Below, one piece after another: positions 22,954-38,792 of a stretch of 64,000 nt of DNA. The notes under the pieces were generated by a model. The model saw only the letters and a list, made by a program, of their open reading frames with translations. It was not told the DNA's origin and made no database searches. The DNA is taken from contig CAMJDT010000003.1 of NCBI GenBank assembly GCA_946404495.1, forward strand, positions 4,630 to 68,629, in the 5' to 3' direction. The stretch comes from an uncultured Bacteroidales bacterium (lineage in GTDB: Bacteria; Bacteroidota; Bacteroidia; Bacteroidales; Paludibacteraceae). Position numbers and translations under genes: made by a program. Every line of letters starts with the position of its first letter. The stretch's first letter is position 1.

Positions 22954-22967
22954 AGTCGTTTTTATTA

Positions 22968-23035
22968 GTGCCTATATGGCCGTTTTTTTATGCCTATATG
23001 TTTGTTTTTTTTGTGCCTATATGGCCGTTTTTTTA
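22968..23035 (-). repeat. Three tandem ~22-nt repeats in the typA 5' UTR
   Basis: GTGCCTATATGGCCGTTTTTTTA / TGCCTATATGTTTGTTTTTTTT / GTGCCTATATGGCCGTTTTTTTA, located between the typA ATG (22953) and its promoter. Confidence 0.85.
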
Positions 23036-23066
23036 ATGCCCTTCTTTGGCAAATTAAATTAGCCTG

Positions 23067-23098
23067 CAAAAGTACGACTTTTTTTTGATATATGCAAA
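23067..23098 (-). promoter_or_regulatory. Promoter of typA (and possibly the typA-tig-mpl-deaminase-protease string)
   Basis: The minus strand reads TTTGCATATATCAAAAAAAAGTCGTACTTTTGCAGGC. Confidence 0.6.
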
Positions 23099-23250
23099 TA
23101 AATTTGCACTTTTTCTGAGAACGCTTTGATTTTTTTTCTGTTTTGGCATATCAATTCGCATTTTTTTTGCGTGAGATGAATAGAATTTATGACGTAGAAT
23201 GTGCCGTTTAGAACAGTATCATCACGGGACCATGTTACGATGACCTTACT

Positions 23251-23748
23251 GTCCTTTTCCCCGACTTCACCGAGCCATTCTCGAGACTTTCCCGAGTCAA
23301 TCTCGAGACAATCACAGGTCGTTTCCGATTCGATCCTAGACCATTGCCGAGTCAATCTCGAACCGTTTACGAGACAATCCTAGACTTTAGTCCTTCCATT
23401 CAGCCAATCACAAGCCAACCTCGCCCTATCAAATGACTCTCATAGTTGATATTTTTGCATGAGATTTTTGAGATTTTTGAGACTTTCCGCCGGATCCCCC
23501 TTATTTTACTGGATCTAACATAGTCTCACCAAAATCTCATAGTCTCACTTCATTTTTCTTCGTGTCGCTATGTCGCTTTGTCGCTGTTCCATTTTTCGTC
23601 GTGACGGTTTGACGGTTTGTCGGTTTCGTTCGGAATGCCTGTATTTAAAGGGCTTGTCGCTATTTCCCTATTCCGGCAAACCGTCATATTGTCATCATTC
23701 CAATTTTACTCTAGCTTAGTCCCTGTTCCGCTTCCTAAGGCTCTGGTA
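23251..23748 (+). repeat. Left arm of a long, patchy inverted repeat (core 23251-23310)
   Basis: 23251-23310 (GTCCTTTTCCCCGACTTCACCGAGCCATTCTCGAGACTTTCCCGAGTCAATCTCGAGACA) matches the reverse complement of 27096-27154 at about 51/60 positions. A second collinear patch at 23723-23748 matches the reverse complement of 26911-26936 at 23/26. Confidence 0.8.
23461..23626. repeat. Iteron-like cluster of short direct and inverted repeats
   Basis: GAGATTTTT x2 + GAGAC (23461-23483) faces GTCTCACCAAAATCTCATAGTCTCAC (23523-23548) as an imperfect inverted repeat. This is followed by TGTCGCT x3 (23563-23586) and GACGGTTT-like x3 (23603-23626). Confidence 0.7.
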
Positions 23749-23821
23749 AGCCCTCAATTCCGAACAATCAACACTAAGTTAGAATGCTCAAAATGACGTG
23801 AAAATGAGTCAAATAAGATGA

Positions 23822-23850
23822 ATCTGCATCAAAAGTGCAGATTTTTTGTT
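23822..23850 (+). terminator. Orphan Rho-independent terminator (no ORF upstream)
   Basis: ATCTGCA-TCAAAAG-TGCAGAT followed by TTTTTTGTTTTTT. The T-run is present only in the + orientation. Confidence 0.6.
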
Positions 23851-23865
23851 TTTTATAGCGAAATA

Positions 23866-23897
23866 TTTGCATATATCAGAAAAAAAACGTAATTTTG
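23866..23897 (+). promoter_or_regulatory. Promoter of TA-like module 1
   Basis: TTTGCATATATCAGAAAAAAAACGTAATTTTGCAGCG. The 62-nt leader is identical to the one upstream of module 3. Confidence 0.65.
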
Positions 23898-23959
23898 CAG
23901 CGATTTTGGGATACTATGTATCCGTGAGACAAAATCAATACGAGAAGGAGGATTGAATT

Positions 23960-24142
23960 ATGGCAACAGCAATTAAAGCGATTCCGACGCTGTATGGCGA
24001 AGAAGCAACACGTTTCCGCCAAATGGCAGAGGAGGCGGAGAGACGTTATGAGTCCACTCCGGTACGAGACCGCAGAAGCGATCCGTACGTTATTAACATG
24101 CGTACAATGCTACAACGTAGCGGAATGTCAGTCGCTTTATGA
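23960..24142 (+). CDS. Small protein (60 aa), putative antitoxin partner of the GNAT protein
   Basis: MATAIKAIPTLYGEEATRFRQMAEEAERRYE.... It has a 4-nt ATGA overlap with the downstream GNAT gene. Two paralogs in the window share the motif IP.LYGE(E/D)A.RF. Confidence 0.6.
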   Translation: MATAIKAIPTLYGEEATRFRQMAEEAERRYESTPVRDRRSDPYVINMRTMLQRSGMSVAL

Positions 24143-24762
24143 TTGATATCTTACGAGACTGTACATTGCATGTTTTGACGGATGATGTTCTTAAGGAATG
24201 TTATCCCTTTAGTTGTGGGCAGAACGATGATATGGATGAATTTTTCCGTGTAGATGCTCTGGAGTATGCCAAGTTTCGTATGGGAAAGTCGTATTGTTTT
24301 CGCCTAATTAGTGACCCTAAGCAAATCATTTGCTGTTTTACATTGTCGAGTGACAGTATTCGTATATACGATTTGCCAAACTCGCGCAAGAACCGAATGT
24401 GGGGAATAACGAATCGCGAGAAGATGTTGAGCCGTTATCCGGGTGTATTGATTGGTCGTTTTGCTGTTGACGCCAAGTATGCCAATCAAGGAGTGGGTTC
24501 GCAAGCTTTGCATTTTATACGTCGTTGGATAATGGAGGATGATGCAAAGATGGCTAATCGACTGGCTATAGTGGATGCTGTGAATAAACCGGAGGTATTG
24601 CATTTCTATGAAAAGAACGGTTTTACCCCTCTCTTTTCATCGGAACTACAGGAAGACTTGTACACCAAGCGTCCATTGAACGACGCTGATCGACAGGACC
24701 GCGAGCAACATCCTCGCCATCTTAGTACAAGGTTAATGTTTTGTGATTTGTTGACTTGCTAG
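24139..24762 (+). CDS. GNAT-family N-acetyltransferase (207 aa), putative toxin of a type II TA-like pair
   Basis: Acetyl-CoA motif A (GVLIGRFAVDAKYANQGVGSQALHFI) plus FYEKNGF. The gene is translationally coupled to the small upstream gene. Confidence 0.7.
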   Translation: MIDILRDCTLHVLTDDVLKECYPFSCGQNDDMDEFFRVDALEYAKFRMGKSYCFRLISDPKQIICCFTLSSDSIRIYDLPNSRKNRMWGITNREKMLSRYPGVLIGRFAVDAKYANQGVGSQALHFIRRWIMEDDAKMANRLAIVDAVNKPEVLHFYEKNGFTPLFSSELQEDLYTKRPLNDADRQDREQHPRHLSTRLMFCDLLTC

Positions 24763-24770
24763 TCATAAAA

Positions 24771-24950
24771 ATACACATCTAACTTGCGGATGTAAAATGC
24801 AAGCCGCTGGGGCCGATAGCGTTAAAAAGCGGTGACATGTTGATTAAGTTTATAGACGCGAAATTTTCAAAAAGAACTGAAGAGTCCATAAAATTGAAGA
24901 AAAATGACATAAAATTTGCATATGTCATTTTTTTGTTGTACCTTTGCAGC
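24771..24950 (+). repeat. Cassette-junction repeat, copy 1 (full length, ~180 bp, contains promoter)
   Basis: ATACACATCTAACTTGCGGATGTAAAATGCAAGCCGCTGGGGCCGATAGCGTTAAAAAGCGGTGACATGTTGATT...AATGACATAAAATTTGCATATGTCATT...TACCTTTGCAGC. It is about 90% identical to copy 3 (26467-26646). Confidence 0.9.
24915..24946 (+). promoter_or_regulatory. Promoter of cassette 2
   Basis: TTTGCATATGTCATTTTTTTGTTGTACCTTTGCAGCC. The -33 box sits inside the 8-bp-arm palindrome AATGACAT-N11-ATGTCATT. Confidence 0.6.
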
Positions 24951-24975
24951 CCAAAGGTATGCAAAGGAACTAACA

Positions 24976-25173
24976 ATGGTAGAATTGAAGAACATAAGAT
25001 GGAGCGATTTTGAGGTTGTAGATGCACCCAAGCACGAGTTGAAACCCGGGCAGAAAGTGCAATGCACTTACTTTCGTATAAATCCGGGTAGCTACAAACC
25101 TGTGCACTCAAATCTTACCATTACGGATATGCCAAAAGAGTTATATGATGCGTTCTTTCAAGCAAGAGTATAA
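24976..25173 (+). CDS. Small hypothetical protein (65 aa)
   Basis: MVELKNIRWSDFEVVDAPKHELKPGQKVQCTYFRINPGSYKPVHSNLTITDMPKELYDAFFQARV. The start is moved to the first ATG downstream of the predicted TSS. Confidence 0.45.
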   Translation: MVELKNIRWSDFEVVDAPKHELKPGQKVQCTYFRINPGSYKPVHSNLTITDMPKELYDAFFQARV

Positions 25174-25231
25174 TTGTCAGGCAGAAGCAATCATTACTGA
25201 AGCAGTAGATTAATAGAAAGAGGATAAAACT

Positions 25232-25402
25232 ATGGCACGACCAATTGCAGAAACACCGATTTTGTATGGCGAAGATGCGCTTCGCTTCATACAGAGAGCG
25301 CAGTATGTGGAAAGTCTGTCCAAAACACAGCGGCAAGCTAATCTCAGAGCTTTAGAAGATCGTTTGGCTCGATCAAAACATCAAATAGAGTTCTGTTTAT
25401 AA
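25232..25402 (+). CDS. Small protein (56 aa), antitoxin-like paralog (orphan)
   Basis: Manual translation gives MARPIAETPILYGEDALRFIQRAQYVESLSKTQRQANLRALEDRLARSKHQIEFCL. It shares the P.LYGE.A.RF motif with 23960-24142 and 25653-25823. Confidence 0.55.
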   Translation: MARPIAETPILYGEDALRFIQRAQYVESLSKTQRQANLRALEDRLARSKHQIEFCL

Positions 25403-25405
25403 GAG

Positions 25406-25480
25406 ATGAATATTGTTCCGCTGACAAAGGACTACGCTTTGACCGCATTTGATTGTGGCGACAGGGTTAAAAAGCGTTGA
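25406..25480 (+). pseudogene. 5' remnant (24 codons) of a GNAT toxin-like gene, truncated at the cassette-junction repeat
   Basis: MNIVPLTKDYALTAFDCGDR|VKKR*. The FDCGD motif aligns with PFSCGQ/PFVCGS of the two intact GNATs. Homology to the junction repeat begins exactly at GTTAAAAAGCG (25466). Confidence 0.6.
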
Positions 25481-25594
25481 CATGTTAATTTGGTTATTGA
25501 CGCGGAATTCTCAAAAAAGACCGTAAAGTCCATAAAAATGAAGAAAAATGACATAAAATTTGCATATGTCATTTTTTTTGTGTAATTTTGCAGC
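25466..25594 (+). repeat. Cassette-junction repeat, copy 2 (5'-truncated, ~130 bp)
   Basis: GTTAAAAAGCGTTGACATGTTAATTTGGTTATTGACGCGGAATTCTCAAAAAAGACCGTAAAGTCCATAAAAATGAAGAAAAATGACATAAAATTTGCATATGTCATTTTTTTTGTGTAATTTTGCAGC. Confidence 0.9.
25559..25590 (+). promoter_or_regulatory. Promoter of TA-like module 3
   Basis: TTTGCATATGTCATTTTTTTTGTGTAATTTTGCAGCG, with the same palindrome over the -33 box. Confidence 0.65.
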
Positions 25595-25652
25595 GATTTT
25601 GGGATACTATGTATCCGTGAGACAAAATCAATACGAGAAGGAGGATTGAATT

Positions 25653-25823
25653 ATGGCAACAGCAATTAAAGCGATTCCGACGCTGTACGGCGAAGAAGCA
25701 TTGCGCTTTTTAACCGCTGCTCAAGCCGCAGAGAGGCGCTACGATGAGCGAGGACCAATTGATTGGTCGCAAACACAAGGTGTGCAAACAGCACGCCAAA
25801 TATGGGCTAATATGATGCAATAG
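25653..25823 (+). CDS. Small protein (56 aa), putative antitoxin partner
   Basis: MATAIKAIPTLYGEEALRFLTAAQAAERRYDERGPIDWSQTQGVQTARQIWANMMQ. The first ~50 nt and the 5' leader are identical to module 1. Its stop lies 2 nt before the GNAT ATG. Confidence 0.6.
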   Translation: MATAIKAIPTLYGEEALRFLTAAQAAERRYDERGPIDWSQTQGVQTARQIWANMMQ

Positions 25824-25825
25824 AC

Positions 25826-26464
25826 ATGAGTTTCCTGGCAGACAATTGTTTACTTAGTCCATATACGGAAGATGTGCGTCAAGCATGTCTGCCTTTTGTG
25901 TGTGGTAGTGAAGACATGGATGAGTTCTTCGCTAAAGATTTTGCTGCCTACGCTCATTACTTAATGGGCAAATCCTATTGTTTCCGACTTAAGGAAAGTC
26001 CCAAACAGATAGTGTGTGCATTTACGATCAGCAATGATAGTATACGAATATACGATTTGCCACGCTCACGACGAGACTATATGAAAGCCATTACGCACCA
26101 TGAGAAGCATTTACGCAGATACCCCGGTGTGTTAATTGGACGATTGGCTGTAGCAAAAGAGTTTGCCGGTAAAGGCGTTGGATCCGCAGTATTGACATTT
26201 GTGAAAGACCTGTTCTCCGATCCGGCGATACAAACAGGTTGCCGATTTATAATTGTAGATGCCGTGAATTCTCCTGAGATATTGTCCTTTTATCAGAAGA
26301 ACGGTTTTGTATTCCTATTTACTACTGAGGGACAGGAGGCATTATACACCTATCCGCCCAAGGATGAGGAAGAACGTCAAGCGTTGAAGAATAATCCGCA
26401 TCCATTGCAAACACGATTGATGTACTTTGATCTTCTTGATTTGAAGAATCAAAAAGAACAATAA
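25826..26464 (+). CDS. GNAT-family N-acetyltransferase (212 aa), paralog of 24139-24762
   Basis: GVLIGRLAVAKEFAGKGVGSAVLTFV plus FYQKNGF. By eye it is collinear with, and roughly half identical to, the first GNAT (MGKSYCFRL, DSIRIYDLP, RYPGVLIGR, IVDAVN). Confidence 0.7.
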   Translation: MSFLADNCLLSPYTEDVRQACLPFVCGSEDMDEFFAKDFAAYAHYLMGKSYCFRLKESPKQIVCAFTISNDSIRIYDLPRSRRDYMKAITHHEKHLRRYPGVLIGRLAVAKEFAGKGVGSAVLTFVKDLFSDPAIQTGCRFIIVDAVNSPEILSFYQKNGFVFLFTTEGQEALYTYPPKDEEERQALKNNPHPLQTRLMYFDLLDLKNQKEQ

Positions 26465-26466
26465 CG

Positions 26467-26646
26467 ATACACATCTAACTTGCGGATGTAAAATGCAAGC
26501 CGCTGGGGCCGACAGCGTAAAAAAGCGGTGACATGTTGATTAGGTTTATAGACGCGAAATTCTCAAAAAGGGCTGTAAAGTCCATAAAAATGAAGAAAAA
26601 TGACATAAAATTTGCATATGTCATTTTTTTTGTGTAATTTTGCAGC
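26467..26646 (+). repeat. Cassette-junction repeat, copy 3 (full length)
   Basis: Same unit as copy 1. It starts 3 nt after the GNAT stop. Confidence 0.9.
26611..26642 (+). promoter_or_regulatory. Orphan cassette promoter (no ORF for ~830 nt downstream)
   Basis: TTTGCATATGTCATTTTTTTTGTGTAATTTTGCAGCC. The next credible start codon on this strand is 27474. Confidence 0.55.
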
Positions 26647-26910
26647 CGTATTCGTTTTACGCTGCGTGAGTGAGATTTTTTGTAGCTCACGTCGGGAAGT
26701 GTCCTATTAGTGCGAGGCGGGTACAGGACATGATAAAAAGCGTCTTAAATGCGCTTTGTTTTGGCATTCTGAAATCTGGTAAATTTCGATAACTTCCAAG
26801 ACAATGTGACACTAAGATGCTCATGGTGTATATTGTAAGTGCACGCGTACGCGCGTGTATATATACATATTGGCGTGGGCTTCGGTGTTGCTGTTTGGAA
26901 GTAAAGGCAA

Positions 26911-27154
26911 TACCAGAGCCTCAGAATGCGGAACAGCAAGATTGCAGTCCCGCTTTTTTCGTGTGTACATGAGTGGAAGGGATTAAGCTATAGAGGAAAG
27001 GACTAAGCCAGAGTGGAGGGGACTAAGTGGGGACCAAGCTGAAAGGGGGCAAGGTGAAAAAAGGAACAGGCTGTGAGGGAAGTGAATTAGGAAATGACTC
27101 GAGATTGGATCGGGATTTTCTCGAGAATGGCTCGAAGAAGTCGGAGAAAAGGAC
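26911..27154 (-). repeat. Right arm of the long patchy inverted repeat (core 27096-27154)
   Basis: See the left arm. The reverse complement of 27096-27154 is GTCCTTTTCTCCGACTTCTTCGAGCCATTCTCGAGAAAATCCCGATCCAATCTCGAGTCA. Confidence 0.8.
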
Positions 27155-27372
27155 AAATGGACAAATGGAAAAATGGACAAAAAGGACCAAGTAACAATAC
27201 AAGCGCAATACAAGTAGGATACAAGTACAATACAAGGTAGAGAGAAAAAGTGCAGAAAGTGCAGAAAGTGCAAAGCAAAATTTTAAGAGTGCCAGAGTGT
27301 CAGAGTGTCAGAGTGCCACGACAAAAAAATGAAATGGACAAATGGACATATGGACAAAATGGACAGAGTAAA
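27151..27372. repeat. Block of five different short tandem-repeat arrays (8-11 nt units)
   Basis: (GGACAAAT)x4, degenerate, at 27151-27186. (CAATACAAG-N)x4 at 27195-27237. (AAAGTGCAG)x3 at 27247-27273. (AGAGTGYC)x4 at 27286-27317. (ATGGACAWA)x4 at 27333-27366. Confidence 0.8.
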
Positions 27373-27473
27373 ATTACGATAAAGTAACCCACCAGTGACG
27401 TCCACGATGATCGCGAGATGGTCACGGAGGAGGAAGCAAAAAAATAGAAACTATTAAAGCACAAGATATAGTT

Positions 27474-30389
27474 ATGGCAGAAGAGAAGAAAAATATTCCG
27501 GAGAACGCAATCATCTTCCGTATGGGAGAAGAGACGGGTATTGTGATTGAGAAAACAGAGGAGCAATTTAAGCATTCTCCGTTCAAAGAGCAGTACCGTC
27601 AAGTATTTGATATCATGGACACCATTATTGTGCGTTCGACTAAGACGGAAACGCACAAAGACATAGATGATAAGATGTCAAATATCATCGTGTTCTGTGG
27701 TGATCGGGGAGAAGGTAAGACTTCTGCTCTTGAGACTGTGCGTGGAATTCTTTCCAATAAAACGATTATGAAAAATGCACAGGATGCCAAATTATTCTCG
27801 TCAGAAAGAATTGATTCTGATAGTTTTAAAGTATTACGATTAGTTGATCCGGCCTTCTTCGACTCAAAACATAACTTATTGGAATTGTTAATCGGTCAGA
27901 TGTATGCTGACATATGCGATGACGACAGACGTAAAATGGTGGAGGATGAATGCTCTAATAGATGTAATGAAAACATTGCTAATCGTAATCGCTTAATGGA
28001 GAAATTCCAGAAGGTGAAAAGAAGTTTGGCGATAATCAATAAGGCTCCGGATAAAAATGCTTATGACGATTTAGAAGAAATAGATGATCTGGCAGCCGGT
28101 ATTGAATTGAAAAGCAAATTTAACGAGTTGTTGCATTGCTATGCACGATATTTTCATAAAGAACGTGTCTTAATCAGTATTGATGATCTTGACTTAAATG
28201 CTACGGAAGGATATCAAATGGCGGAAGAGATCCGCAAATATCTTAGTTCGCCAGAGCATTGTGTTGTGTTGTTGGCGGTTAAGATAGAACAGATGGTAGA
28301 GGTCGTTCAATCGTACTTGCGGCAACGAATGGACAAAGAAGTTGTTTCTAACGAGACTATCAAAGAGATGGCCATTCGGTATGTGATGAAATTAATACCT
28401 GAAAGTAACCGTATTTTGATGCCAAGTGGAGAAGAAATAGTAGAGCAGATGGTTCAATTATACAATGGAGATAAACCTGATGATGATCCTTTATCAGTAA
28501 AAGAAACTGTTGTTCGGCTTATTTATAAGAAGACAGGATATATTTTTGTGAACGGGCGAAACATATCTCCTATAGTGCCCATTAATCTCCGTTCGGTTCG
28601 CCTTCTATTGGGAATGTTATGGAAGATGCCGAACTCAAAGAACGAAGATAACAGTGATAACTTAAAAAATAAAGCCGACTTTAAAGCATATTTCAACTCT
28701 GTATGGATCGCTGGTCTTTCAGAGGAGAATTTGGTATTTGTGGAAACATTAGCTCATAATGAAGACATCATTTCTATTAATAAAGATGTTGTATCTCATT
28801 TAGGAAACATACTACGCCCCAAAGACAGAAAAGAAACAATAGAAATATCAGACAGCATAGTTACGGCTATTTTACATCCTTATAATGCTATGCAGAACAT
28901 TTCTCTAGGAGACGTGTTCTATGTTATGAATTATGTAGAGAATGTTAATGCTTCGGCTGAGACTAAGCATCTTATCTATTTCTTACGAGCTTTTTACTCC
29001 ATGAAATTGTATGAGACTTATAATGTTATTTCAGAATCTGAGGATAAGTTGTTTCCTAAAGAAGAAGGGAATGTCGCAATATATAAATACGATAAAAAAA
29101 TTCAGAAACTTAACTTGTTACAAAGATTAGTCAATGGCTCATATTTCACATACGAAGCAGGAGCTTTAATACGTAAAGACGATCGTCACATTCCAAGAGA
29201 CAAAAGAGCTATTAATGGTAAGGAGTTGTGCTCTTTATTTAAAAATCTTTCCCCTGAATCAAGTGATGTAGATTGGCAATTATGTGAGTTTTTCGCATTA
29301 ACTACGAGATATCCTCTATATTCTCGGCAAGATTTAGATTATGATAGGACACAAACTACTCGTTCGTATTATGATGCTTTTAGTGATCACAATAACTACA
29401 TAGCGTTTGATGTTTTATCCATATTTAGCAATGTTGTTAACATTAAGCAAACATACCAAAGGTGGAATGAACTATACAAAGGAGGTACGTCTGACTTCTT
29501 CGAAGATTCATTGGCTCGCGACAAATCCTTGTTAAAAGATATATTAGCTATTTGTCTGCAAAAACATAATACAAATGAAAATAATTTAGAACATCAATGG
29601 CATTGTTTCATTTCGGAGGCGATAATTCGTTTCTCTGAAGTGCAGTTGGCAATTGTAGATACGTTAATTAATAAAAGAGATGCAGCCAAGACCGGAGGCA
29701 ACTTATTCAATATAGCTAACACATATCAATATATACGTGACTTAGGAATAAAACTATATCCGAATCATATTCAGGAGGAAGAAGATTCTTATAACATGGA
29801 ATTTTGGTTTTTGGAACCAATCATTACGTTCTTAAATCATAAAGAAACTAATTTAACTGAAGAGAAATTTAATAGTATATATCAATTTGATGTTACGGCG
29901 AAATCTATTAGAGACGCATTAGAAACAATATTTGGCAAAACTATTCTTAAACCAAAACAAGAAGAGCTTACGGGAATAGAGATTCGTAAAATTATTGAAA
30001 AACAGAAAGATTCAGATATATACGAGAATATAAATTGGGAAGAACTATTTGATGAGAGCACGAAATACTCGAGAGAAGATATCATTGCCATACTTTCTGA
30101 GGAAAAGACTTTTAGTGTTGTAAGGCAGATTTCTCGTTCTATCCAAGAGCGTGAAAGGATGGCAGAAAAGGTGACTGAGAGTGTAATGCGCAAGGTTACC
30201 AAAGAAATAAGCACTACGCAAACTGCTGTCCAAAGGGCATTAGAGCCCTTTACTAAACAAATATCGGATCTTGCGTCTAAGATGGAAGAAGTGAAAGCAA
30301 ACATAATAGAAGAAGGACTTAATAGGGCAGCTGAAATTGAAAGAATAGAAAAGAGATTAGACGAACAGCAAAAGGGAATAACTGAGTAA
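27474..30389 (+). CDS. rdrA: Large KAP-like P-loop NTPase (971 aa); RdrA-like ATPase of a RADAR-type defence system
   Basis: Walker A is IIVFCGDRGEGKTSAL and Walker B is RVLISIDDLDLN (a KAP-type DDLD). About 650 aa of helical sequence follow, ending in a coiled-coil tail. The stop TAA is directly abutted by the ATG of the deaminase gene. The gene is AT-rich. Confidence 0.7.
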   Translation: MAEEKKNIPENAIIFRMGEETGIVIEKTEEQFKHSPFKEQYRQVFDIMDTIIVRSTKTETHKDIDDKMSNIIVFCGDRGEGKTSALETVRGILSNKTIMKNAQDAKLFSSERIDSDSFKVLRLVDPAFFDSKHNLLELLIGQMYADICDDDRRKMVEDECSNRCNENIANRNRLMEKFQKVKRSLAIINKAPDKNAYDDLEEIDDLAAGIELKSKFNELLHCYARYFHKERVLISIDDLDLNATEGYQMAEEIRKYLSSPEHCVVLLAVKIEQMVEVVQSYLRQRMDKEVVSNETIKEMAIRYVMKLIPESNRILMPSGEEIVEQMVQLYNGDKPDDDPLSVKETVVRLIYKKTGYIFVNGRNISPIVPINLRSVRLLLGMLWKMPNSKNEDNSDNLKNKADFKAYFNSVWIAGLSEENLVFVETLAHNEDIISINKDVVSHLGNILRPKDRKETIEISDSIVTAILHPYNAMQNISLGDVFYVMNYVENVNASAETKHLIYFLRAFYSMKLYETYNVISESEDKLFPKEEGNVAIYKYDKKIQKLNLLQRLVNGSYFTYEAGALIRKDDRHIPRDKRAINGKELCSLFKNLSPESSDVDWQLCEFFALTTRYPLYSRQDLDYDRTQTTRSYYDAFSDHNNYIAFDVLSIFSNVVNIKQTYQRWNELYKGGTSDFFEDSLARDKSLLKDILAICLQKHNTNENNLEHQWHCFISEAIIRFSEVQLAIVDTLINKRDAAKTGGNLFNIANTYQYIRDLGIKLYPNHIQEEEDSYNMEFWFLEPIITFLNHKETNLTEEKFNSIYQFDVTAKSIRDALETIFGKTILKPKQEELTGIEIRKIIEKQKDSDIYENINWEELFDESTKYSREDIIAILSEEKTFSVVRQISRSIQERERMAEKVTESVMRKVTKEISTTQTAVQRALEPFTKQISDLASKMEEVKANIIEEGLNRAAEIERIEKRLDEQQKGITE

Positions 30390-32987
30390 ATGGACTTTGA
30401 ACGAGCGAGCATAAAGGCGTTATTCTACGATTATCCGGTAGAAGCGGTGGTGAAAGCCATCGAGGATGCACGTAGATATAAGGATGACTTCATTGACATC
30501 CTCCCTCAACTTGTGCGTTGGCGTGAAGATGCTTTCACGACAACTGAGGCTCGCTTAATGGAGAATTTGGCGCAAGATATATGGATGAATCTGAATAGCG
30601 AGAATGCGCTAAATGAATATGCAGATGAGCAAGATGCGACAAGGATTCCATTTATCTACCGCCCGTTCTTACTCGTTCGGTATATGGCCGATATTTTAGT
30701 GACGCATGATGCGAAGACACATCAACCTATGGCTGTCTTCGATGAATTGCTTAGATGGAAGGATACAACATTATTTGTAGGAGAAGACTTGCTGACAACT
30801 GCATATTTGGCAAATAAAGATGTAATTTCTAATCCCAAGTGCCAAACAACTCTCTTCGCATGGCCGGACCATATAAGGCATAATAACGAGGAGTTACACG
30901 AGGTGTTAAGCCGAGGAGTAATAGATCTTCATGCACATTATAATGCGACATGTGATGTCTTTAACCTCAATTGGATCGATTTAACAAACTCGCTAAATAA
31001 TATCGAAAAAAAATTGAATGATGTTAAGCAATATCAAGATGTGACACTCTCTGTAGCCAATACGGAGCAGTTATATACGTTCAAACGAATGTGTATTGCT
31101 GCAGCATACTTGAGGGTGCAATTCTTTAAGTTGCTAAACAACCTATGCACTTGCGACAAGCAGTTCTGTCATAGCATAATGTGTGTAAAGCGCATTTTGG
31201 AAGACGAGATGTATGCGAATCGGATTAAGCGGGATCTTAGTGCAGAAATCGGTGTTTTGCGGACATCTGCTATAAAAAGTCGAAATGGAAGAACTTTGGA
31301 TTATGCCATCCTCCCCGATGATGTAAAGGGACATGTTAAGGATGCTAATATCATCTTCCACGGAGAACGTAAACTGATGTATCAGTTCTTCTATCGCTTC
31401 TATGGATACGATAAGACGATGTGGGCATTGGCACCGTATTTCTACTTGTATTTGATACTAAAGACGCGTATCCGCAAGGAGTTCGTCCAAATCAATCAAC
31501 TGAAGGGCTTTGAGAATTTTGAGACCTATCAAGATAGAAAAGATATCTTTATCAAGGAGCACGATCCGATTGCAGAAATATTTGACCCTATAGTACTACA
31601 GACTACATTGCGTGGTAGTGACAATGATCACTTAGAAGGACGTATTACTCCGAAGGAATTGCGACATATGACGAGTCACTCGCGTATGCGTGTACTCAAT
31701 TATAATAAAGGAATATTCACACAACGCAAAGTTATGGATAATGCTGCGAAGCATCTGTCGTTAGTCGTGCATTTCATAAAAGCCAACTATAGTAAATCGG
31801 AAAAAGCGCATGATTTATATTTGAGCAACCGTCAGGACTATCCACGTTACTATAACTATCGCAATGAATTAAAGGCTCATATCAAACAAGTCCTGAGGGT
31901 TTACAAGAAACAGCAAAGTCGTCCGGACGATATACAAATAGTGGGTATAGATGCAGCCAGCACGGAGATGTTCTGCCGACCGGAGGTATTCGGTCATGTG
32001 TTCCGATATGCGCGTAAAAGGGGATTAAATAACCTGACGTATCATGTTGGAGAAGATTTCTTCGATATCGTAGATGGTCTGCGTGCGATAGATGAAGCGA
32101 TGTTGTTCTTAGGCTTAGGAGCTAAATGCCGTATCGGACATGCGTTAGCAATGGGTGTTGAAGCCAAGAAGTATTACGAGAAACGGAGATTCAATATCCT
32201 TGCGCCTAAACAATATGTGTTGGATAATTGCGTTTGGCTCTGTATGACTGCCAGCAAAGAAGATGTAGAAATACCGAACTCCTTAGAAACAGAACTTAAT
32301 CGTTTTGCGCGAGAACTATACAAGGCAATAGGCTATAATAAGGTTTGTCCGTTCGACATGCAGACATATTGGAATAGTATGCTTTTGCGCGGAGATGAAC
32401 CATGTAAACTGGATCAAAAGTCTAACCTGACATTATGGGCGAAAGCGACCATGACCGATTGGGACCAAACGGCAGAAGTAGATGAAGAAATAGTTAATGT
32501 GGCTCGTCAAGATCAAGAAGCATGCCTTCTTTATCAGACATATCATTTTGATCATATCGTTAAAGTCAATGGAGAAAAACGCTATCAAGGCAAATACCCA
32601 GAGACGATAGCTGATATTGTTGATCAACTCCAAGCAAAAATGCGCTGCAAGGTTGCTGCTAAACAGATTGCTGTGGAGTGTAATCCGACTTCGAACTTAA
32701 AGATTGGCTTTGTGGATAAGTATTGCGAACATCCGTTGCTCACAAAGTTTGATCCGATTGAATATCAATCAGACTCGCATTACCCGTTATTGAACGCTTC
32801 TGTAAATACGGATGATAGAGGAGTCTTTGCGACAACATTATATAACGAGTTCTCATTACTGGCCTTGGGAATGATAAAAGAGAAGAAAGAAAACGGAGAA
32901 CGCAAATATGGAACGCGTCAGGTAATGGAATACATTGAACACCTTCGCCAAGCAGGTGAGAAACAACGATTTAATAATTTGAAATAA
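30390..32987 (+). CDS. rdrB: Large divergent adenosine-deaminase-fold protein (865 aa); RdrB-like
   Basis: The ADA/amidohydrolase motifs appear in canonical order: VIDLHAHYN (HxH, ~30918), TYHVGEDF (~32040), RIGHALAMG (~32130), VECNPTSN, SVNTDDRGVF (~32803). They are embedded in a protein about 2.5x the size of a housekeeping Add. Confidence 0.75.
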   Translation: MDFERASIKALFYDYPVEAVVKAIEDARRYKDDFIDILPQLVRWREDAFTTTEARLMENLAQDIWMNLNSENALNEYADEQDATRIPFIYRPFLLVRYMADILVTHDAKTHQPMAVFDELLRWKDTTLFVGEDLLTTAYLANKDVISNPKCQTTLFAWPDHIRHNNEELHEVLSRGVIDLHAHYNATCDVFNLNWIDLTNSLNNIEKKLNDVKQYQDVTLSVANTEQLYTFKRMCIAAAYLRVQFFKLLNNLCTCDKQFCHSIMCVKRILEDEMYANRIKRDLSAEIGVLRTSAIKSRNGRTLDYAILPDDVKGHVKDANIIFHGERKLMYQFFYRFYGYDKTMWALAPYFYLYLILKTRIRKEFVQINQLKGFENFETYQDRKDIFIKEHDPIAEIFDPIVLQTTLRGSDNDHLEGRITPKELRHMTSHSRMRVLNYNKGIFTQRKVMDNAAKHLSLVVHFIKANYSKSEKAHDLYLSNRQDYPRYYNYRNELKAHIKQVLRVYKKQQSRPDDIQIVGIDAASTEMFCRPEVFGHVFRYARKRGLNNLTYHVGEDFFDIVDGLRAIDEAMLFLGLGAKCRIGHALAMGVEAKKYYEKRRFNILAPKQYVLDNCVWLCMTASKEDVEIPNSLETELNRFARELYKAIGYNKVCPFDMQTYWNSMLLRGDEPCKLDQKSNLTLWAKATMTDWDQTAEVDEEIVNVARQDQEACLLYQTYHFDHIVKVNGEKRYQGKYPETIADIVDQLQAKMRCKVAAKQIAVECNPTSNLKIGFVDKYCEHPLLTKFDPIEYQSDSHYPLLNASVNTDDRGVFATTLYNEFSLLALGMIKEKKENGERKYGTRQVMEYIEHLRQAGEKQRFNNLK

Positions 32988-33010
32988 TAACAAAAAATTA
33001 TACAAACATT

Positions 33011-36000
33011 ATGAAAAAGATTAAATTTTTAAAAACACTATTGGTATTGATAGGAGTACTAATAGGGAGTGTATCACACATGAGGGCAGAAGCATGGCTC
33101 AAGGGCGGTGTTTGGATGCAATTGTCCTATAATAGTACAACATGGAGTGCAGATCACTATGTGAACGATAAGGCACAAGCTAAAGGAAGCCTTGGTACAC
33201 TAACGACGGACGTTGTGGTAACACAATGTTATTGGAAAAATACAACTGACTGGGGCGTACATCATACAGTTAATGGATTACAGTGGACATTAGACAACGG
33301 TTCAAATTGGTCAAATCACACAGAGAACCACACCGGTGAAAACGGCACGTATCAAGTGGGGAGCAATTCATATTCATGGACGCTTATAGAAGTAGAAAGC
33401 AACTCGGGAATCTTCACTATGAAATATGATTTTTGGGCTGATTACTATTACGATGCAAGTAACTGTAACGATCATTCATGGGCACCTGGTGGTTCTGGAA
33501 ATGATTTCTCATTAACCTACACCATTCTTCCTCCGGATCCGACTGCTATTAGTGTAACAGCCAGTTCAGGTAGTATTGGCGGTGATGGCTCTGCGGGGAG
33601 TCCTTTTTTAGTTCAACACAATGGTAGTCTGACGCTATCGACATCCGGAACTCCGGCTCATAACAATGATGGAAACTCAAGTCTGTATGTTAAATATGGT
33701 AGCGATAGTTATAGTGGCACTACAACTAAAACAATATCTTCTATCACTTCTACGGATGCCCAATATATAGATATAGAAATCAAATACTATAATAGCGGAG
33801 CATCACTATCCTCGGCTACGCCAAGAACTAAACGAGTATACTATAAAGTAGCAACTTATGCCATCACATTGGATGATAATGGTTCGTATCTAAGCGATGG
33901 TAGTGCGACGGCAGCATATAAGCGTACTACGTTAACGAATATCACTGCTCCGCGCCGTACTGGTTATCACGTTGACGGATATTATGGAGAGGCTGGAACC
34001 ACTACGCATATATCTGACGCGAGCGGTAACTTACAAGCCAGCAAGACTGTAAGCACTACTCCATACACAGATAAAGATAGTCAGTGGTTAAAACAATCTG
34101 CAACTACCCTTTATACAAAGTGGGCTGCGAACACTTATGATGTAACGCTGAAAGCTAACACAGGTACTGGTGATGACCAAGTTGTACAAGCGACGTATGA
34201 TGCTGAAATGCCAACGACCTTGAAAGGAAGTAGTGATGCCGTTACGGTACACACCAAGACGGGATATAATCTGTTAGGATATTGGGATGCAACATCTGAC
34301 GGAAATCAGTACTATAGTTATAATGTAGGAACAAGTACCCTATCTTCGTATACGACTTGGAATAAGACAAGCGCTACTGACCTTTATGCGCATTGGTCTG
34401 CTGCGACATACACCGTAACGCTTGATTATAACGAAATGGGTTATGGAAGTGCAGGAGCAGGTGTGGAGAATTCGGTAAGTGCTACTTATGATGCCGCTAT
34501 GCCGGCAATGGGTACTGCTCCGACACCGGCAGTTGGATATACGTTCATGGGATATTTCACCGAAGCAGGCGGTGGAGGTACGAAATATTATAATGCAAAT
34601 GGTTCCTCCGCCCATATCTGGGATATAGCGGAGAATACAACTCTCTATGCGTACTATAAGAAAACGACCATTACTGGTTTTACTCATGCAGCAACTATAG
34701 CAAAGGCTTCAACGACATACTTGACGGTTAATCCGACATTGGATCCGGCGAGCGGTTTCCAAGGATACGTTGACATCTGCTGGACGCTGCTCTATGCCGA
34801 TACAGATAACCCGGTTGATGGCTCGCATTGGAGCGTAGCAGCTGATACAGAAGGCGGTTCAAAACCCCGTCAAGTTAAGTATACCTTGACTAGTTTGGAG
34901 AACGGTTCGTATAAGGTAAAAGCTGTGTTGAAAGCCAACGCAACTTCAGGTTTTACTCCTTGCTCTGCCGGTACAGAACTGCAAACGGCGACCAGTACTT
35001 TCTCAATCATTGGTGACAATACCGTGACGATAAAGTATGTAGATAACACTTCGGGTGCAACGATTGCTGCAAATAGTAGTACTTCTATTCCTGCCGGCGA
35101 CTCTGTGGATGTAGTCGCCCCAAGCATCATCGGTTATAACTTTACTACGTGGGAAATGGGTGATGGCGTTGCTTTAGCTGGTAACCCGGTATCAGTAGCA
35201 ACCAACTGTACCATCAAGATTAAAGCTACCTACGATGGTACGATTAAGGCGAAGTATACGAAGGTAAATACGATTTACTTTAAGAATACTTTAGGATGGT
35301 CGGCTGTTTATGTGAACTTACTGACATCATCCTACTGGAATGACATTACAGGTTCCGGTAACTATGATAGGGGGAATCGTAATATCGCGATGGAAAGGAT
35401 AGGAACTAGTGATATTTGGTATTACGAATACACCGATAAAGGTACCTCAAATTATGTTTCGTTTACGAATAAGATTCAAAATGGAGCAGATGAAAGAGGT
35501 GCTGGAAATTTCTGGGATTCAGATGAAAATGACAATGTACAAGTAGTTTATCCGACTCGGCCGAATGATGATGCAAGCGAGCAAGATGCTTACGGCTTCA
35601 ATGTAAATACTCCGATGTTTATTCCTCTTTCGGAACAAACTCCGTTAGAGAAAAACAGCACAAATTCACCGGCTGGCCGCGCATTTTACTATAACAAGGG
35701 ATATTGGGCAAAATATGATCCTATCACTCGTGAGACGGGTTATACCTTAACGATATTTAATAAAAAGACGCGTGCTGATTCTCCTGATGCCGGATCGAAA
35801 GATCCTGCGATACTGAAATCGATACCGTTTGTATTTAGTGAAGGAATGACTTTCCCTGTAACGGTAACGGTAGATTTGGAGGCTGGTATCACATATGGAT
35901 TCAAAATTTACCGTGATAAGGGTAACTCAGGTGATCAATACAGTTGGTACGGGAATGCTAATACTATGTCAAACGGACATAGCGGTGATTTCAGCGCAGC

Positions 36001-38599
36001 GCAAACGGCTTGGGAGTTCCGACCTGGTAATACTTATTCAAATGCCGGTTTGACAACTGCCGGAGCCGGTAACTATGAGTTTACATTGACATATGATGAG
36101 GATGCACAAGGAACACCTAAATACAACTACTTAGTAGGTGTAAAATATCCGGAATCAACCGGTGACTTCCGAGTACAGTATTACGATAATGTAAAGACTT
36201 TCTGGCGTTCGTCTTCTGTTATATCGAGTCATGCAGACAGCGCTATTGTTTCTTACTATGTTCGTAAAGGTCAAAGCCCGAAAATTCGTGCACAGAAGTG
36301 TACGGTTACATATGTAGATGATGTAACAACTGTTACTTGGACGAACGAAAATGGTGGTGCCAATATGATCAGTCCTTTACCCTCCGCTATCACAGAAGAT
36401 GGTGTGTATAATTTCACTTTCAAAATCAATGGGAGCGGTGAATTGTACTTGGTACGAACGGAGCCGTATGAGGGTAACTTCTATATTCGTACAGATGGTG
36501 CAGGTACTTCGAAGTGGGATAACTTCCGCAATAGTGACCACCAGATGGCATATTCGGAGTATGCAGAGAAGAAAGAGAACTTTACGCATTCGTTCACTCA
36601 ATGGTATGATATCTCAAAATGCAAGAATATTAAGTTTGTCGTGGCGAATGATTATAGTGTCGATATATCCGACACATTGATACGCGAAGCGCTTGAAGGA
36701 CAGTGGCAATACATTAGCGATTACATTGATGCTTCCGGTGATTTGAGTCGTAACGCAAATATTCGCTTCATGTATAACAAAAAGACGAACGCTATTAGCC
36801 GTGCATATATTGATGGCTCATACGCAGACGGTGGTAACTTCTTGAAGATATTAGCAAATACAACGTATCATAAGATATATGAGAATGCCGAAGGAGGTGA
36901 TCCTGTAGCCGAGATTACATTCAAGGATAAGGGTAACTGGGTATATGAGAAGACTGTTTATGCACTCCCCGGAGCAAAATATAAACTACGGTCCATTTAT
37001 GGTACTACCGCAGATAGTAAGCATGAAATCACTCAATACTTCAAGGGTGGTGAAGGCTCGACTGCTTCTGATTCGGCAACACTTATAGGCGGTTCCGGTT
37101 CTACGAGATATAAGATCCGTCTCCTATATGATTTCAAGACCAACCGTCTTGTTACAGCGTATGTTCCTTCCGGAACGATAGAGACTGATATGGAAATACA
37201 TGCAGATATCATGTTCTTACGTGAACATCAAGGTGATATAGACGAGATTTCATTTGCTGATGGAAAATCCATTTCTGAGATTGAAAATGTTTATTGCGGA
37301 GTACAATTCAGTAAGTGGACGTTGAATAATAAGTCTAAAGAAACCGGAAATCCTGTATTGAGTCCGTTACTCTCTCGCTACGAACGAGACTTGTTCTACG
37401 TATCGTTCCCGTATGATGTCAAACTGAGTGATGTGATTGGTTTCGGTACCTATGGTCAGCACTGGATCATCGAATATTACGATGGCGCTGACCGTGCCGC
37501 TAAAGGATTCTGGGCAGACAGCGAGAGCTTCTGGAAGTTTGTCACACCTGCTATGAAGAACAACTTTACGCTAAAAGCAGGTACGGGTTATATTGTGGCG
37601 CTGGATTTAGATGAGTTGGGAGAGAGTTCAGATATATGGACAAATACAGATCAGGTCGAGTTGCTCTTCCCTGGTAATGTAACGAGTATCTCAAGTACTT
37701 CCGTTACTTACGAGATGCCGGCACACGAATGCACGATTAACCGTCCGACGCCAAAGGGAGATCGTACGATAGCAGATAGTCACTGGAACGTGTTGGGCGT
37801 ACCTACATACCATAATCTAACCGGAAGTCCAGCCGTAAGTATGGCTAATGAGACTTGGACTGCTGATCATCCGAACTTTATCTACACGTGGAATCCGCAA
37901 GATAACTCGCTGACAGCTACCGCCGCTACATCATTTAATTACAAAGCTATGCATGCGTACGTGGTTCAGTACTGCGGAAATGTCACCTTTACGACCAGTA
38001 CATCACCGGCTCCCACTCCAATCGCAGCACGTATGACGGATACGCCGGATAAGGAGTATAAGTTGGAACTGATTAGCGAGGAGCAAGTGGAGGATCAGAC
38101 CTTTGTACGTATGACGGATAATGAGGGTGTAACCACCGGATTCGAGTTCGGTGATGACCTCAGTAAAGAGATGAATCGTAACCGCGGTAACATCTGGACG
38201 GTGACGACGGATAGTGTAGAAGTTGCCGGTAACAGCATGCCGAAACCGTTGCAGACAACCCTTGTACCCGTAGGCGTGAAAGTGGTTGCCAACGGCGAAT
38301 ATACCTTCTCGATGCCGGAAGGCACGAATGGAGGCGATGTATGGCTCATCGATAATGCCAACAGCTCGCGCACAAACCTCGGACTGATGGATTATACCGT
38401 TAATCTCACGACAGGTACCTACGAAGGCCGCTTCTCACTCGAATTCCCGGTTCAGAACATTGTAACTGAAATCGAGAATGCAGCCAATGCCAACGCCAAT
38501 GCTAATGCCGACGCAGTCCGCAAGGTATTCGTCGGCGGACGACTCTATATCCTCCGCGACGGTAAGGCGTATGACGCGACCGGCGCACAGGTACGATAG
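33011..38599 (+). CDS. Giant secreted/cell-surface repeat protein (1862 aa) with Listeria-Bacteroides (InlB B-repeat-like) repeats and T9SS-like C-terminus
   Basis: Signal peptide MKKIKFLKTLLVLIGVLIGSVSHMRA. At least 3 repeats of the type Y.VTLD.N.......V.ATYDA.MP......P...GY.F.GY. A CBM-like segment (IYFKNTLGWSAVYVNL...). It ends NANANANADAVRKVFVGGRLYILRDGKAYDATGAQVR. Confidence 0.75.
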   Translation: MKKIKFLKTLLVLIGVLIGSVSHMRAEAWLKGGVWMQLSYNSTTWSADHYVNDKAQAKGSLGTLTTDVVVTQCYWKNTTDWGVHHTVNGLQWTLDNGSNWSNHTENHTGENGTYQVGSNSYSWTLIEVESNSGIFTMKYDFWADYYYDASNCNDHSWAPGGSGNDFSLTYTILPPDPTAISVTASSGSIGGDGSAGSPFLVQHNGSLTLSTSGTPAHNNDGNSSLYVKYGSDSYSGTTTKTISSITSTDAQYIDIEIKYYNSGASLSSATPRTKRVYYKVATYAITLDDNGSYLSDGSATAAYKRTTLTNITAPRRTGYHVDGYYGEAGTTTHISDASGNLQASKTVSTTPYTDKDSQWLKQSATTLYTKWAANTYDVTLKANTGTGDDQVVQATYDAEMPTTLKGSSDAVTVHTKTGYNLLGYWDATSDGNQYYSYNVGTSTLSSYTTWNKTSATDLYAHWSAATYTVTLDYNEMGYGSAGAGVENSVSATYDAAMPAMGTAPTPAVGYTFMGYFTEAGGGGTKYYNANGSSAHIWDIAENTTLYAYYKKTTITGFTHAATIAKASTTYLTVNPTLDPASGFQGYVDICWTLLYADTDNPVDGSHWSVAADTEGGSKPRQVKYTLTSLENGSYKVKAVLKANATSGFTPCSAGTELQTATSTFSIIGDNTVTIKYVDNTSGATIAANSSTSIPAGDSVDVVAPSIIGYNFTTWEMGDGVALAGNPVSVATNCTIKIKATYDGTIKAKYTKVNTIYFKNTLGWSAVYVNLLTSSYWNDITGSGNYDRGNRNIAMERIGTSDIWYYEYTDKGTSNYVSFTNKIQNGADERGAGNFWDSDENDNVQVVYPTRPNDDASEQDAYGFNVNTPMFIPLSEQTPLEKNSTNSPAGRAFYYNKGYWAKYDPITRETGYTLTIFNKKTRADSPDAGSKDPAILKSIPFVFSEGMTFPVTVTVDLEAGITYGFKIYRDKGNSGDQYSWYGNANTMSNGHSGDFSAAQTAWEFRPGNTYSNAGLTTAGAGNYEFTLTYDEDAQGTPKYNYLVGVKYPESTGDFRVQYYDNVKTFWRSSSVISSHADSAIVSYYVRKGQSPKIRAQKCTVTYVDDVTTVTWTNENGGANMISPLPSAITEDGVYNFTFKINGSGELYLVRTEPYEGNFYIRTDGAGTSKWDNFRNSDHQMAYSEYAEKKENFTHSFTQWYDISKCKNIKFVVANDYSVDISDTLIREALEGQWQYISDYIDASGDLSRNANIRFMYNKKTNAISRAYIDGSYADGGNFLKILANTTYHKIYENAEGGDPVAEITFKDKGNWVYEKTVYALPGAKYKLRSIYGTTADSKHEITQYFKGGEGSTASDSATLIGGSGSTRYKIRLLYDFKTNRLVTAYVPSGTIETDMEIHADIMFLREHQGDIDEISFADGKSISEIENVYCGVQFSKWTLNNKSKETGNPVLSPLLSRYERDLFYVSFPYDVKLSDVIGFGTYGQHWIIEYYDGADRAAKGFWADSESFWKFVTPAMKNNFTLKAGTGYIVALDLDELGESSDIWTNTDQVELLFPGNVTSISSTSVTYEMPAHECTINRPTPKGDRTIADSHWNVLGVPTYHNLTGSPAVSMANETWTADHPNFIYTWNPQDNSLTATAATSFNYKAMHAYVVQYCGNVTFTTSTSPAPTPIAARMTDTPDKEYKLELISEEQVEDQTFVRMTDNEGVTTGFEFGDDLSKEMNRNRGNIWTVTTDSVEVAGNSMPKPLQTTLVPVGVKVVANGEYTFSMPEGTNGGDVWLIDNANSSRTNLGLMDYTVNLTTGTYEGRFSLEFPVQNIVTEIENAANANANANADAVRKVFVGGRLYILRDGKAYDATGAQVR

Positions 38600-38661
38600 G
38601 AGCGTTTAGACCCAAACCCTCCCAGCAAGGAGAGGTTATTTTCATAATGATTTTATATTTA

Positions 38662-38699: not shown

Positions 38700-38723
38700 C
38701 GGGATATCGGGATAACGAAAGGG

Positions 38724-38778: not shown

Positions 38779-38792
38779 TTTTGTGCATTTTA

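Follow-up and report, generated by a model that had tools for sequence, protein, structure and literature searches.

A very probable stand-alone RADAR system in an uncultured Bacteroidales genome and the apparent modular exchange of its RdrA

Two abutting genes of an uncultured Bacteroidales bacterium (assembly GCA_946404495.1, contig CAMJDT010000003.1), one coding for a large P-loop ATPase and the other for an oversized adenosine deaminase, raise the question of whether they form a RADAR anti-phage system, composed of the ATPase RdrA and the deaminase RdrB. The genes lie in a stretch of 64,000 nucleotides (nt), positions 4,630 to 68,629 of the contig, which is referred to as the window and whose own numbering is used throughout. 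An earlier sequence-only reading of this DNA had proposed a RADAR-type system, either a divergent member of the known family or a sister family. The analysis described here makes it highly probable that the pair is a stand-alone (rdrAB-type) RADAR anti-phage system. The two open reading frames (ORFs), designated A and B, and their principal features are listed below, all on the + strand.

27474..30389, +: ORF A, rdrA-like, 971 amino acids (aa); AAA+ (tentatively KAP-like) P-loop ATPase, with an N-terminal ATPase carrying a helical 'crown' insertion, a C-terminal helical lobe and a coiled-coil tail
27690..27731, +: Walker A / P-loop VFCGDRGEGKTSAL, A residues 73-86, including G81-K82-T83
28164..28199, +: Walker B RVLISIDDLDLN, A residues 231-242, including D237 and D238
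28431..30386, +: apparently swappable 3' part of rdrA, residues ~320-971, comprising the end of the AAA+ domain and the C-terminal helical lobe; putative phage sensor
30390..32987, +: ORF B, rdrB-like, 865 aa; adenosine-deaminase fold with large insertions
30924..30944, +: HxH metal-binding motif DLHAHYN, B residues 179-185 (H181, H183)
32040..32156, +: YHVGEDF and RIGHALAMG, B residues 551-557 (H552, catalytic E555) and 581-589 (H584)
B residues 763-769: ECNPTSN
32805..32828, +: NTDDRGVF, the C-terminal aspartate motif of adenosine deaminases, B residues 806-813 (D808, D809)

Both ORFs are intact and their junction reads GAG TAA ATG GAC, the TAA stop codon of A (30387-30389) being immediately followed by the ATG of B (30390). 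The Walker motifs and the adenosine deaminase motifs named in the sequence-only reading were all located, the latter in canonical order in B. The profile searches and the AlphaFold and Foldseek comparisons which that reading had proposed came out in favor of RADAR: A and B are homologous to RdrA and RdrB, in structure as in sequence, over their full length.

The identification of A is based on profiles first. The protein matches the NCBIfam RdrA model NF041743 with an E-value of 2e-18, and the PADLOC RdrA profile matches 16 of 40 members of the A family individually. A single-sequence comparison with E. coli RdrA is marginal (E 0.011). When a profile of the A family is compared to the PDB sequences, the RdrA of S. 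suis (8fnu, 4.3e-23) and that of E. coli (1.1e-9) are both retrieved, the S. suis match running past the ATPase domain to profile position 528. An AlphaFold2 model of A, calculated from the family alignment with a predicted local distance difference test score (pLDDT) of 83 and a predicted template modelling score (pTM) of 0.72, was then compared to the PDB using Foldseek. The top 20 matches are all RdrA chains, with E-values of 1.8e-16 to 1.1e-11 over approximately 830-1016 aligned columns. The best of these is S. suis 8fnu_A (E 1.8e-16, 902 columns, template modelling (TM) scores 0.47/0.56) and the first fold other than RdrA is ClpX, at E 0.03. For A and B alike, at least 13 orders of magnitude separate the RdrA or RdrB matches from any other fold.

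The nucleotide-binding site of A is preserved in all its parts. Residues G76, R78, G79, E80, G81, K82 and S84 of the P-loop and D237, D238 and D240 of Walker B are invariant in 40 relatives. In E. coli RdrA, Walker A comprises G81/K82/T83 and the Walker B aspartates are D221/D222 (PMC9994260); the Walker A numbering G81-K82-T83 is the same in both proteins and the Walker B of the window aligns with the E. coli sequence 'ITFDDID'. In the model, the crown is probably formed by the helices at about residues 135-226, between P-loop and Walker B, and R373, judged by its position, may be the sensor 2 residue. Two helices (877-942 and 950-970) close the protein as a coiled-coil tail of about 95 residues, which is missing from many relatives. 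The 'KAP-style' designation given to the ATPase in the sequence-only reading is less secure. Pfam KAP_NTPase (PF07693) does not match window A at E<=0.01; it matches 3 of the 40 relatives (best 6e-8), a precomputed PF07693 annotation is found in four database relatives, and the S. suis RdrA was deposited in the PDB as 'KAP NTPase domain-containing protein'. The label is therefore weakly supported for A.

Protein B matches the RdrB profiles of PADLOC (1.4e-20) and NCBIfam (NF041744, 2.4e-31) and, with 42.5 bits, exceeds the gathering cut-off of 27 of Pfam A_deaminase. E. coli RdrB (8fnw) is matched at 1.5e-24 by the single sequence and at 2.5e-45 by the family profile. With the AlphaFold2 model of B (pLDDT 86, pTM 0.89), the top 8 Foldseek matches in the PDB are all E. 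coli RdrB, the best with E 2.9e-23 and TM scores of 0.64/0.71 over 931 columns, followed by adenosine and adenine deaminases from 2e-4 and by Cad1 from 3.7e-4. In 38 relatives, residues H181, H183, H552, E555, H584 and D808 never vary, and neither does T807; D809 is kept in at least 90% of them. The zinc ligands and catalytic residue of E. coli RdrB, H152, H154, H498, E501 and H530 (PMC9994260), correspond to H181, H183, H552, E555 and H584 of B, with the same H-to-E spacing of 3 and H-to-H spacing of 32. The YHVGEDF/RIGHALAMG region aligns residue by residue with the E. coli protein and NTDDRGVF aligns with its 'GSDDPGIF'. The catalytic residues of A and B are thus all intact.

The association of the two genes was then considered across their families, which comprise 353 clusters (A) and 192 clusters (B) at E<=0.001. 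Nearly all members are metagenomic Bacteroidales proteins, left unnamed or called 'hypothetical' in the databases because the clade scores far under the curated cut-offs. A survey in which one genome per species was scanned returned 37 loci, including those of Bacteroidales metagenome-assembled genomes (MAGs), Segatella copri, Prevotella jejuni, Bacteroides muris, Parabacteroides acidifaciens, Muribaculaceae and Dorea sp. 5-2. In all 33 loci where DNA is available beyond a full-length A gene, a B gene lies downstream of A in the same orientation, at a median distance of 4 nt. The rdrA-rdrB tandem, a feature of all known RADAR systems (PMC9994260), is accordingly strictly conserved and translationally coupled. 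One of the survey loci (L013), in P. jejuni DSM 26989, carries its 828-aa A gene at contig position 65010 and is identical to a RADAR entry of Table S1 of Duncan-Lowey et al. 2023, which lists this organism together with other Bacteroidetes RADAR systems. Its proteins score 675 bits (RdrA) and 145 bits (an RdrB fragment) against the profiles of the window family. Since one member of the family had thus been listed as RADAR before, the pair belongs to the catalogued family and the sister-family option of the sequence-only reading has to be abandoned. A literature search found no paper on RADAR in Bacteroidales, and a search for 'RdrA' had the RADAR structure paper as the sole pertinent one among the matches listed.

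An RdrA-type AAA+ ATPase, an RdrB-type deaminase, the Walker motifs, the tandem arrangement and continuity with catalogued systems are therefore all present at this locus. Several observations nevertheless weigh against the assignment. The curated annotation thresholds are not reached: A scores 66.3 bits with NF041743 vs an equivalog cut-off of 600, B scores 109.1 bits with NF041744 vs a cut-off of 800, and the PADLOC RdrA profile does not match window A at E<=0.01. In the structural alignments, 12-18% of residues are identical to those of the solved RdrA and RdrB; this is somewhat lower than the 22-28% shared by validated RADAR systems, a range that refers to conserved domains alone and is not directly comparable. 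ATP/dATP as the substrate would follow from the homologues rather than from window B itself. Finally, no consensus promoter is found directly before rdrA, the nearest being ~830 nt upstream. As to the thresholds, they gauge nearness to the seed sequences and do not define RADAR. With this locus, an uncultured gut/rumen lineage of Bacteroidales gains a well-supported RADAR system. A clade of several hundred systems of this kind escapes the PADLOC RdrA and NCBIfam equivalog models, and counts of RADAR in metagenomes of Bacteroidales are therefore probably too low.

The best structural and profile match to A is the RADAR system of S. suis SS993 (8fnu), which guards E. coli against phages T2/T4/T6 (PMC9994260). 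The two RdrA proteins share the GDRGxGKTS context of the P-loop and a two-layered build, with an N-terminal AAA+ domain bearing the crown insertion and a C-terminal helical lobe. They differ in sequence (18% identity in the structural alignment), in length (971 aa with the coiled-coil tail in the window vs 907 aa) and in host, Bacillota for S. suis and Bacteroidota for the window. The E. coli P0304799.3 system, known from structures of RdrA (8fnt/8hr8), RdrB (8fnv) and their complex (8fnw/8hr7), shares with the window the RdrB fold along its whole length, the identically spaced zinc ligands and catalytic glutamate, Walker A G81-K82-T83, the Walker B aspartate pair and the rdrA-rdrB tandem. It differs by an identity of 12-18% and by a sequence similarity confined in A to the ATPase core and in B to the C-terminal two-thirds. 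In our own reading of the alignment, the sensor 1 residue D253 of E. coli RdrA is replaced by a lysine in both window A and S. suis. The P. jejuni DSM 26989 system has the protein families and the order, Bacteroidales, of the window pair; its RdrA is however only ~30% identical to that of the window, which sits in a rumen/gut subclade of uncultured Bacteroidales and Paludibacteraceae-like genomes. Csx27-associated (rdrABC) and SLATT-associated RADAR subtypes are described by Gao et al. 2020 (summarised in PMC7699616). Neither kind of third gene accompanies the window copy, in agreement with the sequence-only reading, which had seen no rdrC/rdrD-type accessory. Cad1, the CARF-adenosine deaminase of type III CRISPR (9c67, 8z3k), is likewise an effector of the adenosine-deaminase fold that turns ATP into ITP in defence, and the PADLOC CARF_ADA profile matches B weakly (4e-9, residues 479-588, the deaminase part alone). 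Window B, however, lacks both a CARF sensor domain and a CRISPR context and is partnered by an RdrA ATPase; its RdrB matches are better by ~19 orders of magnitude.

By analogy with the E. coli, C. rodentium and S. suis systems (PMC9994260), the window RdrA would form a heptameric AAA+ ring whose N-terminal crown docks onto a dodecameric RdrB shell; the action of RdrB on ATP/dATP would then poison the nucleotide pool and abort the infection. A different effector chemistry, in which RdrB edits the adenosines of RNA or acts on an adenine compound other than ATP/dATP, has to be weighed at this point. Editing of A to I in RNA is described by Gao et al. 2020 (summarised in PMC7699616), and the PDB titles of 8hra and 8hrb read 'RdrA ring in RNA-loading state'. 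Against this, no robust RNA editing was found by Duncan-Lowey et al., the site of B is of the mononucleotide adenosine deaminase type, with its histidine tetrad and glutamate spaced as in E. coli RdrB, and its structural neighbours besides RdrB are adenosine and adenine deaminases and the ATP-deaminating Cad1, none of them ADAR-like. The alternative chemistry is thus improbable, and the nucleotide-deaminating RADAR system is retained as the reading of the pair.

Comparison of related loci revealed a further property of RdrA. The window RdrA was compared to loci L002, L001 and L005/L036 and to proteins P0001-P0120; the family-wide comparison comprised 153 RdrA-like proteins. Against L002, similarity is distributed along the pair as follows.

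27480-28430 (A residues 3-319): nucleotide identity 87%, protein identity ~90%
28431-30386 (rest of A): nucleotide identity ~50%, no BLAST alignment; protein identity 16-54%
30387-32974 (all of B): nucleotide identity 85%, protein identity 90%

A second exchange boundary thus falls at the rdrA stop codon in this pair, the one compared at the nucleotide level. Within this set, 252 pairs share 75% identity or more over the first 300 residues and 103 of these fall below 55% in the C-terminal part. The discordance goes in both directions, with extremes of 98% (N) and 32% (C) and of 67% (N) and 99% (C), and the change points of 19 discordant pairs are located at residues ~280-375. Clustering of the 153 proteins yields 80 N-terminal and 80 C-terminal types in 112 combinations; the N-terminal type of the window is paired with 5 C-terminal types and its C-terminal type is carried by 4 N-terminal types. 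Six locus pairs have RdrB identities of 90% or more; in each of them (6/6) the N-terminal modules of RdrA share 90-98% identity, and the C-terminal parts show 97, 93, 79, 51, 41 and 40% identity.

Rate heterogeneity alone was rejected as the cause of this mosaic, given the two-way discordance and the sharp nucleotide breakpoints. Assembly chimeras are an unlikely cause, as identical N/C combinations recur in independent assemblies. We therefore lean slightly towards an RdrA built of two freely reassorting modules, the N-terminal one linked to RdrB and the rest exchanged by homologous recombination. RdrB and the N-terminal ATPase/crown module would be inherited jointly as a chassis and the remainder of RdrA, from about residue 300 and mostly consisting of the C-terminal helical lobe, would be exchanged among dozens of types. 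The crown is the surface of RdrA that contacts RdrB (PMC9994260), and the fact that RdrB travels with the crown-bearing module is consistent with that role. Reassortment of the C-terminal lobe is the pattern expected of a specificity module and supports the hypothesis of Duncan-Lowey et al. that the C-terminal domain is the phage sensor. Near-identical chassis of RdrB and ATPase with unrelated C-terminal lobes, and the converse, provide independent sequence-based support for this hypothesis. If the lobe is indeed the sensor, these proteins are natural chimeras in which one effector chassis is re-targeted by a swap of sensor cassettes, and comparing them could locate the determinants of RADAR specificity and its triggers. 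With such chimeras provided by nature, it becomes easier to ask what RADAR senses and which phages each lobe recognizes.

The pair as a whole is also mobile. It is located in an island of low GC content spanning 22960-40200 (~17 kb, GC 0.414) between a left flank of 0.542 and a right flank of 0.551, and is itself AT-rich (GC 0.356 for A and 0.410 for B), as the sequence-only reading had noticed. A gene for a TypA/BipA-like GTPase, named by eye from the GTPase motifs of its translation, is found to the left of the island and a Na+/H+ exchanger gene to its right. The closest relatives, loci L038-L041, show 89.7% nucleotide identity to the window pair over 5520 nt. This homology starts 9 nt before the ATG of A and stops within 13 nt of the end of rdrB, and the neighbours differ from those of the window (RelA/SpoT, a ParE toxin-antitoxin pair, OmpH, Wzi). 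Conservation of the pair in core-genome synteny, named by the sequence-only reading as a sign of a metabolic role, is not observed, as none of the flanking genes of the window recurs in loci L001-L041 and the 90% relative lies in a different neighbourhood. Because the homology ends at the edges of the pair and the flanks are unrelated, the pair behaves as a sharply bounded two-gene cassette moving between contexts, here in a variable low-GC island that also carries GNAT acetyltransferase cassettes and a PDC-S27 ATPase, a defence/toxin-antitoxin setting. Carriage by phages or prophages is not supported: viral contigs scanned with the RdrA family profile contained no relatives.

The next question concerns the extent of the system, as the sequence-only reading had hinted that a giant secreted protein stands in place of the rdrC/rdrD accessories. 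The features in question are the following.

33011-38599, +: giant surface-protein gene, 1862 aa; InlB-B-repeat/Flg_new, signal peptide
38783(38876)-40186: ATPase_2 + DUF234 gene; PADLOC candidate defence family PDC-S27, 6.6e-49

The position of the giant ORF was confirmed, with its ATG at 33011, 23 nt past the stop of B, and a signal-peptide-like N-terminus; its family consists of InlB-B-repeat/Flg_new surface proteins of 1,400 to 3,200 aa, some labelled Paludibacteraceae. A functional unit of rdrA, rdrB and this gene is suggested by the common strand and the short gap, by the lack of a consensus Bacteroidetes promoter between 26611 and 38793, so that co-transcription of the giant gene with rdrAB is possible, and by homologues located directly after rdrB in L003, L005 and L036 and near the pair in L001, L006 and L038-L041. 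The distribution of the gene argues otherwise. It is absent from most related loci, being present in 6 genome loci and in the closest relatives of the window, and in L001 it is upstream of the pair, although it recurs beside rdrAB within the subclade of the window. In L038-L041 a toxin-antitoxin pair is inserted between rdrB and the giant gene, whose product is just 41% identical to that of the window; in the closest relative a 69-aa ORF intervenes as well and the two DNA sequences cease to be homologous where rdrB ends. Just upstream of giant genes that were picked irrespective of RADAR (L042-L045), same-strand MNT-HEPN, PIN, GmrSD_N, Bro-N, RhuM or ORF6N genes are found. A surface protein with a signal peptide would, moreover, be kept apart from the cytoplasmic nucleotides. 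Since other cassettes hold its 5' site in homologues without RADAR, the giant protein was rejected as a RADAR component and a three-gene unit is very improbable. The site just upstream of the giant gene is apparently a hotspot at which defence and toxin-antitoxin cassettes of various kinds are found, and the giant gene is a neighbour of rdrAB at this hotspot and not the accessory hinted at by the sequence-only reading.

ATPase_2-type genes are often found downstream of giant genes, as in L044, and a PDC-S27-type homologue is located between the giant gene and rdrAB in L001.

With rdrAB retained as a two-gene RADAR system, it could still be a decayed or silent relic, its homologues being no longer functional in this genome. 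The distance of ~830 nt to the nearest upstream consensus promoter, an odd, purine-rich leader full of micro-repeats and the existence of degenerate copies elsewhere (L035, L037) would fit such a state. Both ORFs however run their full length of 971 and 865 aa through AT-rich DNA, in which stop codons are common, and the pair is ~90% identical in nucleotide sequence to the independent copies L038-L041, with no frameshifts. The family residue is also present at every invariant column, including the catalytic ones, which for the window holds by construction. Decay is thus very unlikely. The copy of L035 (673-1299, a Clostridia MAG) is a 209-aa RdrA fragment without RdrB; in L037 (9986-12711, Parabacteroides acidifaciens) a short RdrA ORF of 794 aa is separated from rdrB by 397 nt that contain a 104-aa ORF.

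A housekeeping adenosine deaminase of purine salvage with an associated ATPase, to which the weak matches of Pfam A_deaminase and of the NCBIfam adenosine-deaminase equivalogs to the C-terminal ~70 residues of B could point, is effectively refuted by equivalog scores of 18-43 bits vs cut-offs of 216-530, a size ~2.6 times that of E. coli Add (~333 aa), a structural match to RdrB that surpasses all others by 19 orders of magnitude, and a patchy distribution in a low-GC island with non-syntenic flanks and defence or toxin-antitoxin neighbours.

The expression of the RADAR pair was addressed by pattern scanning, in which the sole full + strand promoter matches of the rdrAB-giant gene stretch are located at 26611 and 38793.

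26611..26642, +: Bacteroidetes-type promoter-like motif TTTG-N20-TAATTTTG, the nearest upstream of rdrA

This motif may drive rdrA-rdrB and perhaps the giant gene too. A scan for sigma-70 promoters and terminators gave counts equal to the shuffled expectation. The promoter-like motif belongs to a repeated family, ATTTGCATAT...TAnnTTTGCAG, of seven copies (23082-23117, 23865, 24914, 25558, 26610, 38792 and 40222), which precede both acetyltransferase cassettes described below, the ATPase_2/DUF234 gene and the gene at 40293. The copy at 38792-38827 falls inside the ATPase_2/DUF234 gene as listed from its GTG start (38783), and the ATG at 38876 is therefore the probable true start.

Between the 26611 motif and rdrA, positions 26650-27473 form a non-coding, strongly purine-rich region of ~820 nt. 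It contains micro-tandem repeats, with AAATGGAC present several times and AGTGCAGAA and AGAGTGTC three times each. Short pieces of this region recur before rdrA in L005, L036 and L038 and elsewhere in these loci. A conserved non-coding RNA or leader before rdrA is not supported, as the ~830-nt leader shares just short micro-repeats with related loci; an Rfam search returned 4 tRNAs in the whole window and nothing else, hence no family in the region upstream of rdrA. Hairpins rich in GC (CACGCG-TACG-CGCGTG and variants) are found 40-70 nt before the giant genes of L003, L005, L036 and L042. No hairpin is found between rdrB and the giant gene of the window, where a copy is located at 26843-26858, ~600 nt before rdrA.

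Related loci display third genes that are missing from the window copy.

L001:15522-16178 and L001:17416-18126: Csx27-like (rdrC type) genes
L004:15226-15906: Csx27-like (rdrC type) gene
L014:14832-15533, L015:14855-15541, L017:14800-15495 and L028:11596-12300: third gene of ~230 aa

In L001 and L004 a Csx27-like membrane protein is encoded directly after rdrB (PADLOC Csx27, 1.3e-6 and 6e-10), and L001 holds a second paralogue 1.2 kb further on; Csx27-type membrane proteins are the known rdrC-type accessory (PMC7699616). The ~230-aa gene overlaps the end of rdrB in three of its four loci and follows it by 6 nt in L017. It matches the PADLOC profile PDLC02368 of PycC (Pycsar cyclase), with E-values down to 3.7e-18, and has no Pfam or PDB sequence match. 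Its placement suggests that this PycC-like gene may be an undescribed RADAR accessory, and it is put forward as a candidate.

Upstream of rdrA, the toxin-antitoxin-like cassettes noticed in the sequence-only reading were found as a duplicated arrangement.

23960-24762: small ORF + GNAT acetyltransferase, first copy
25653-26464: small ORF + GNAT acetyltransferase, second copy

The 119-nt heads of the two copies are 99% identical and their 187-nt tails 92% identical. The small ORF overlaps the start of the GNAT gene by 4 nt in the first copy and ends just before it in the second; it matches no antitoxin family. The cassettes look like toxin-antitoxin pairs, a role that is putative. An 85-aa ORF (24916-25173) is located between the copies, and a 61-nt inverted repeat, 85% complementary (23250-23310 / 27095-27155), brackets both GNAT cassettes.

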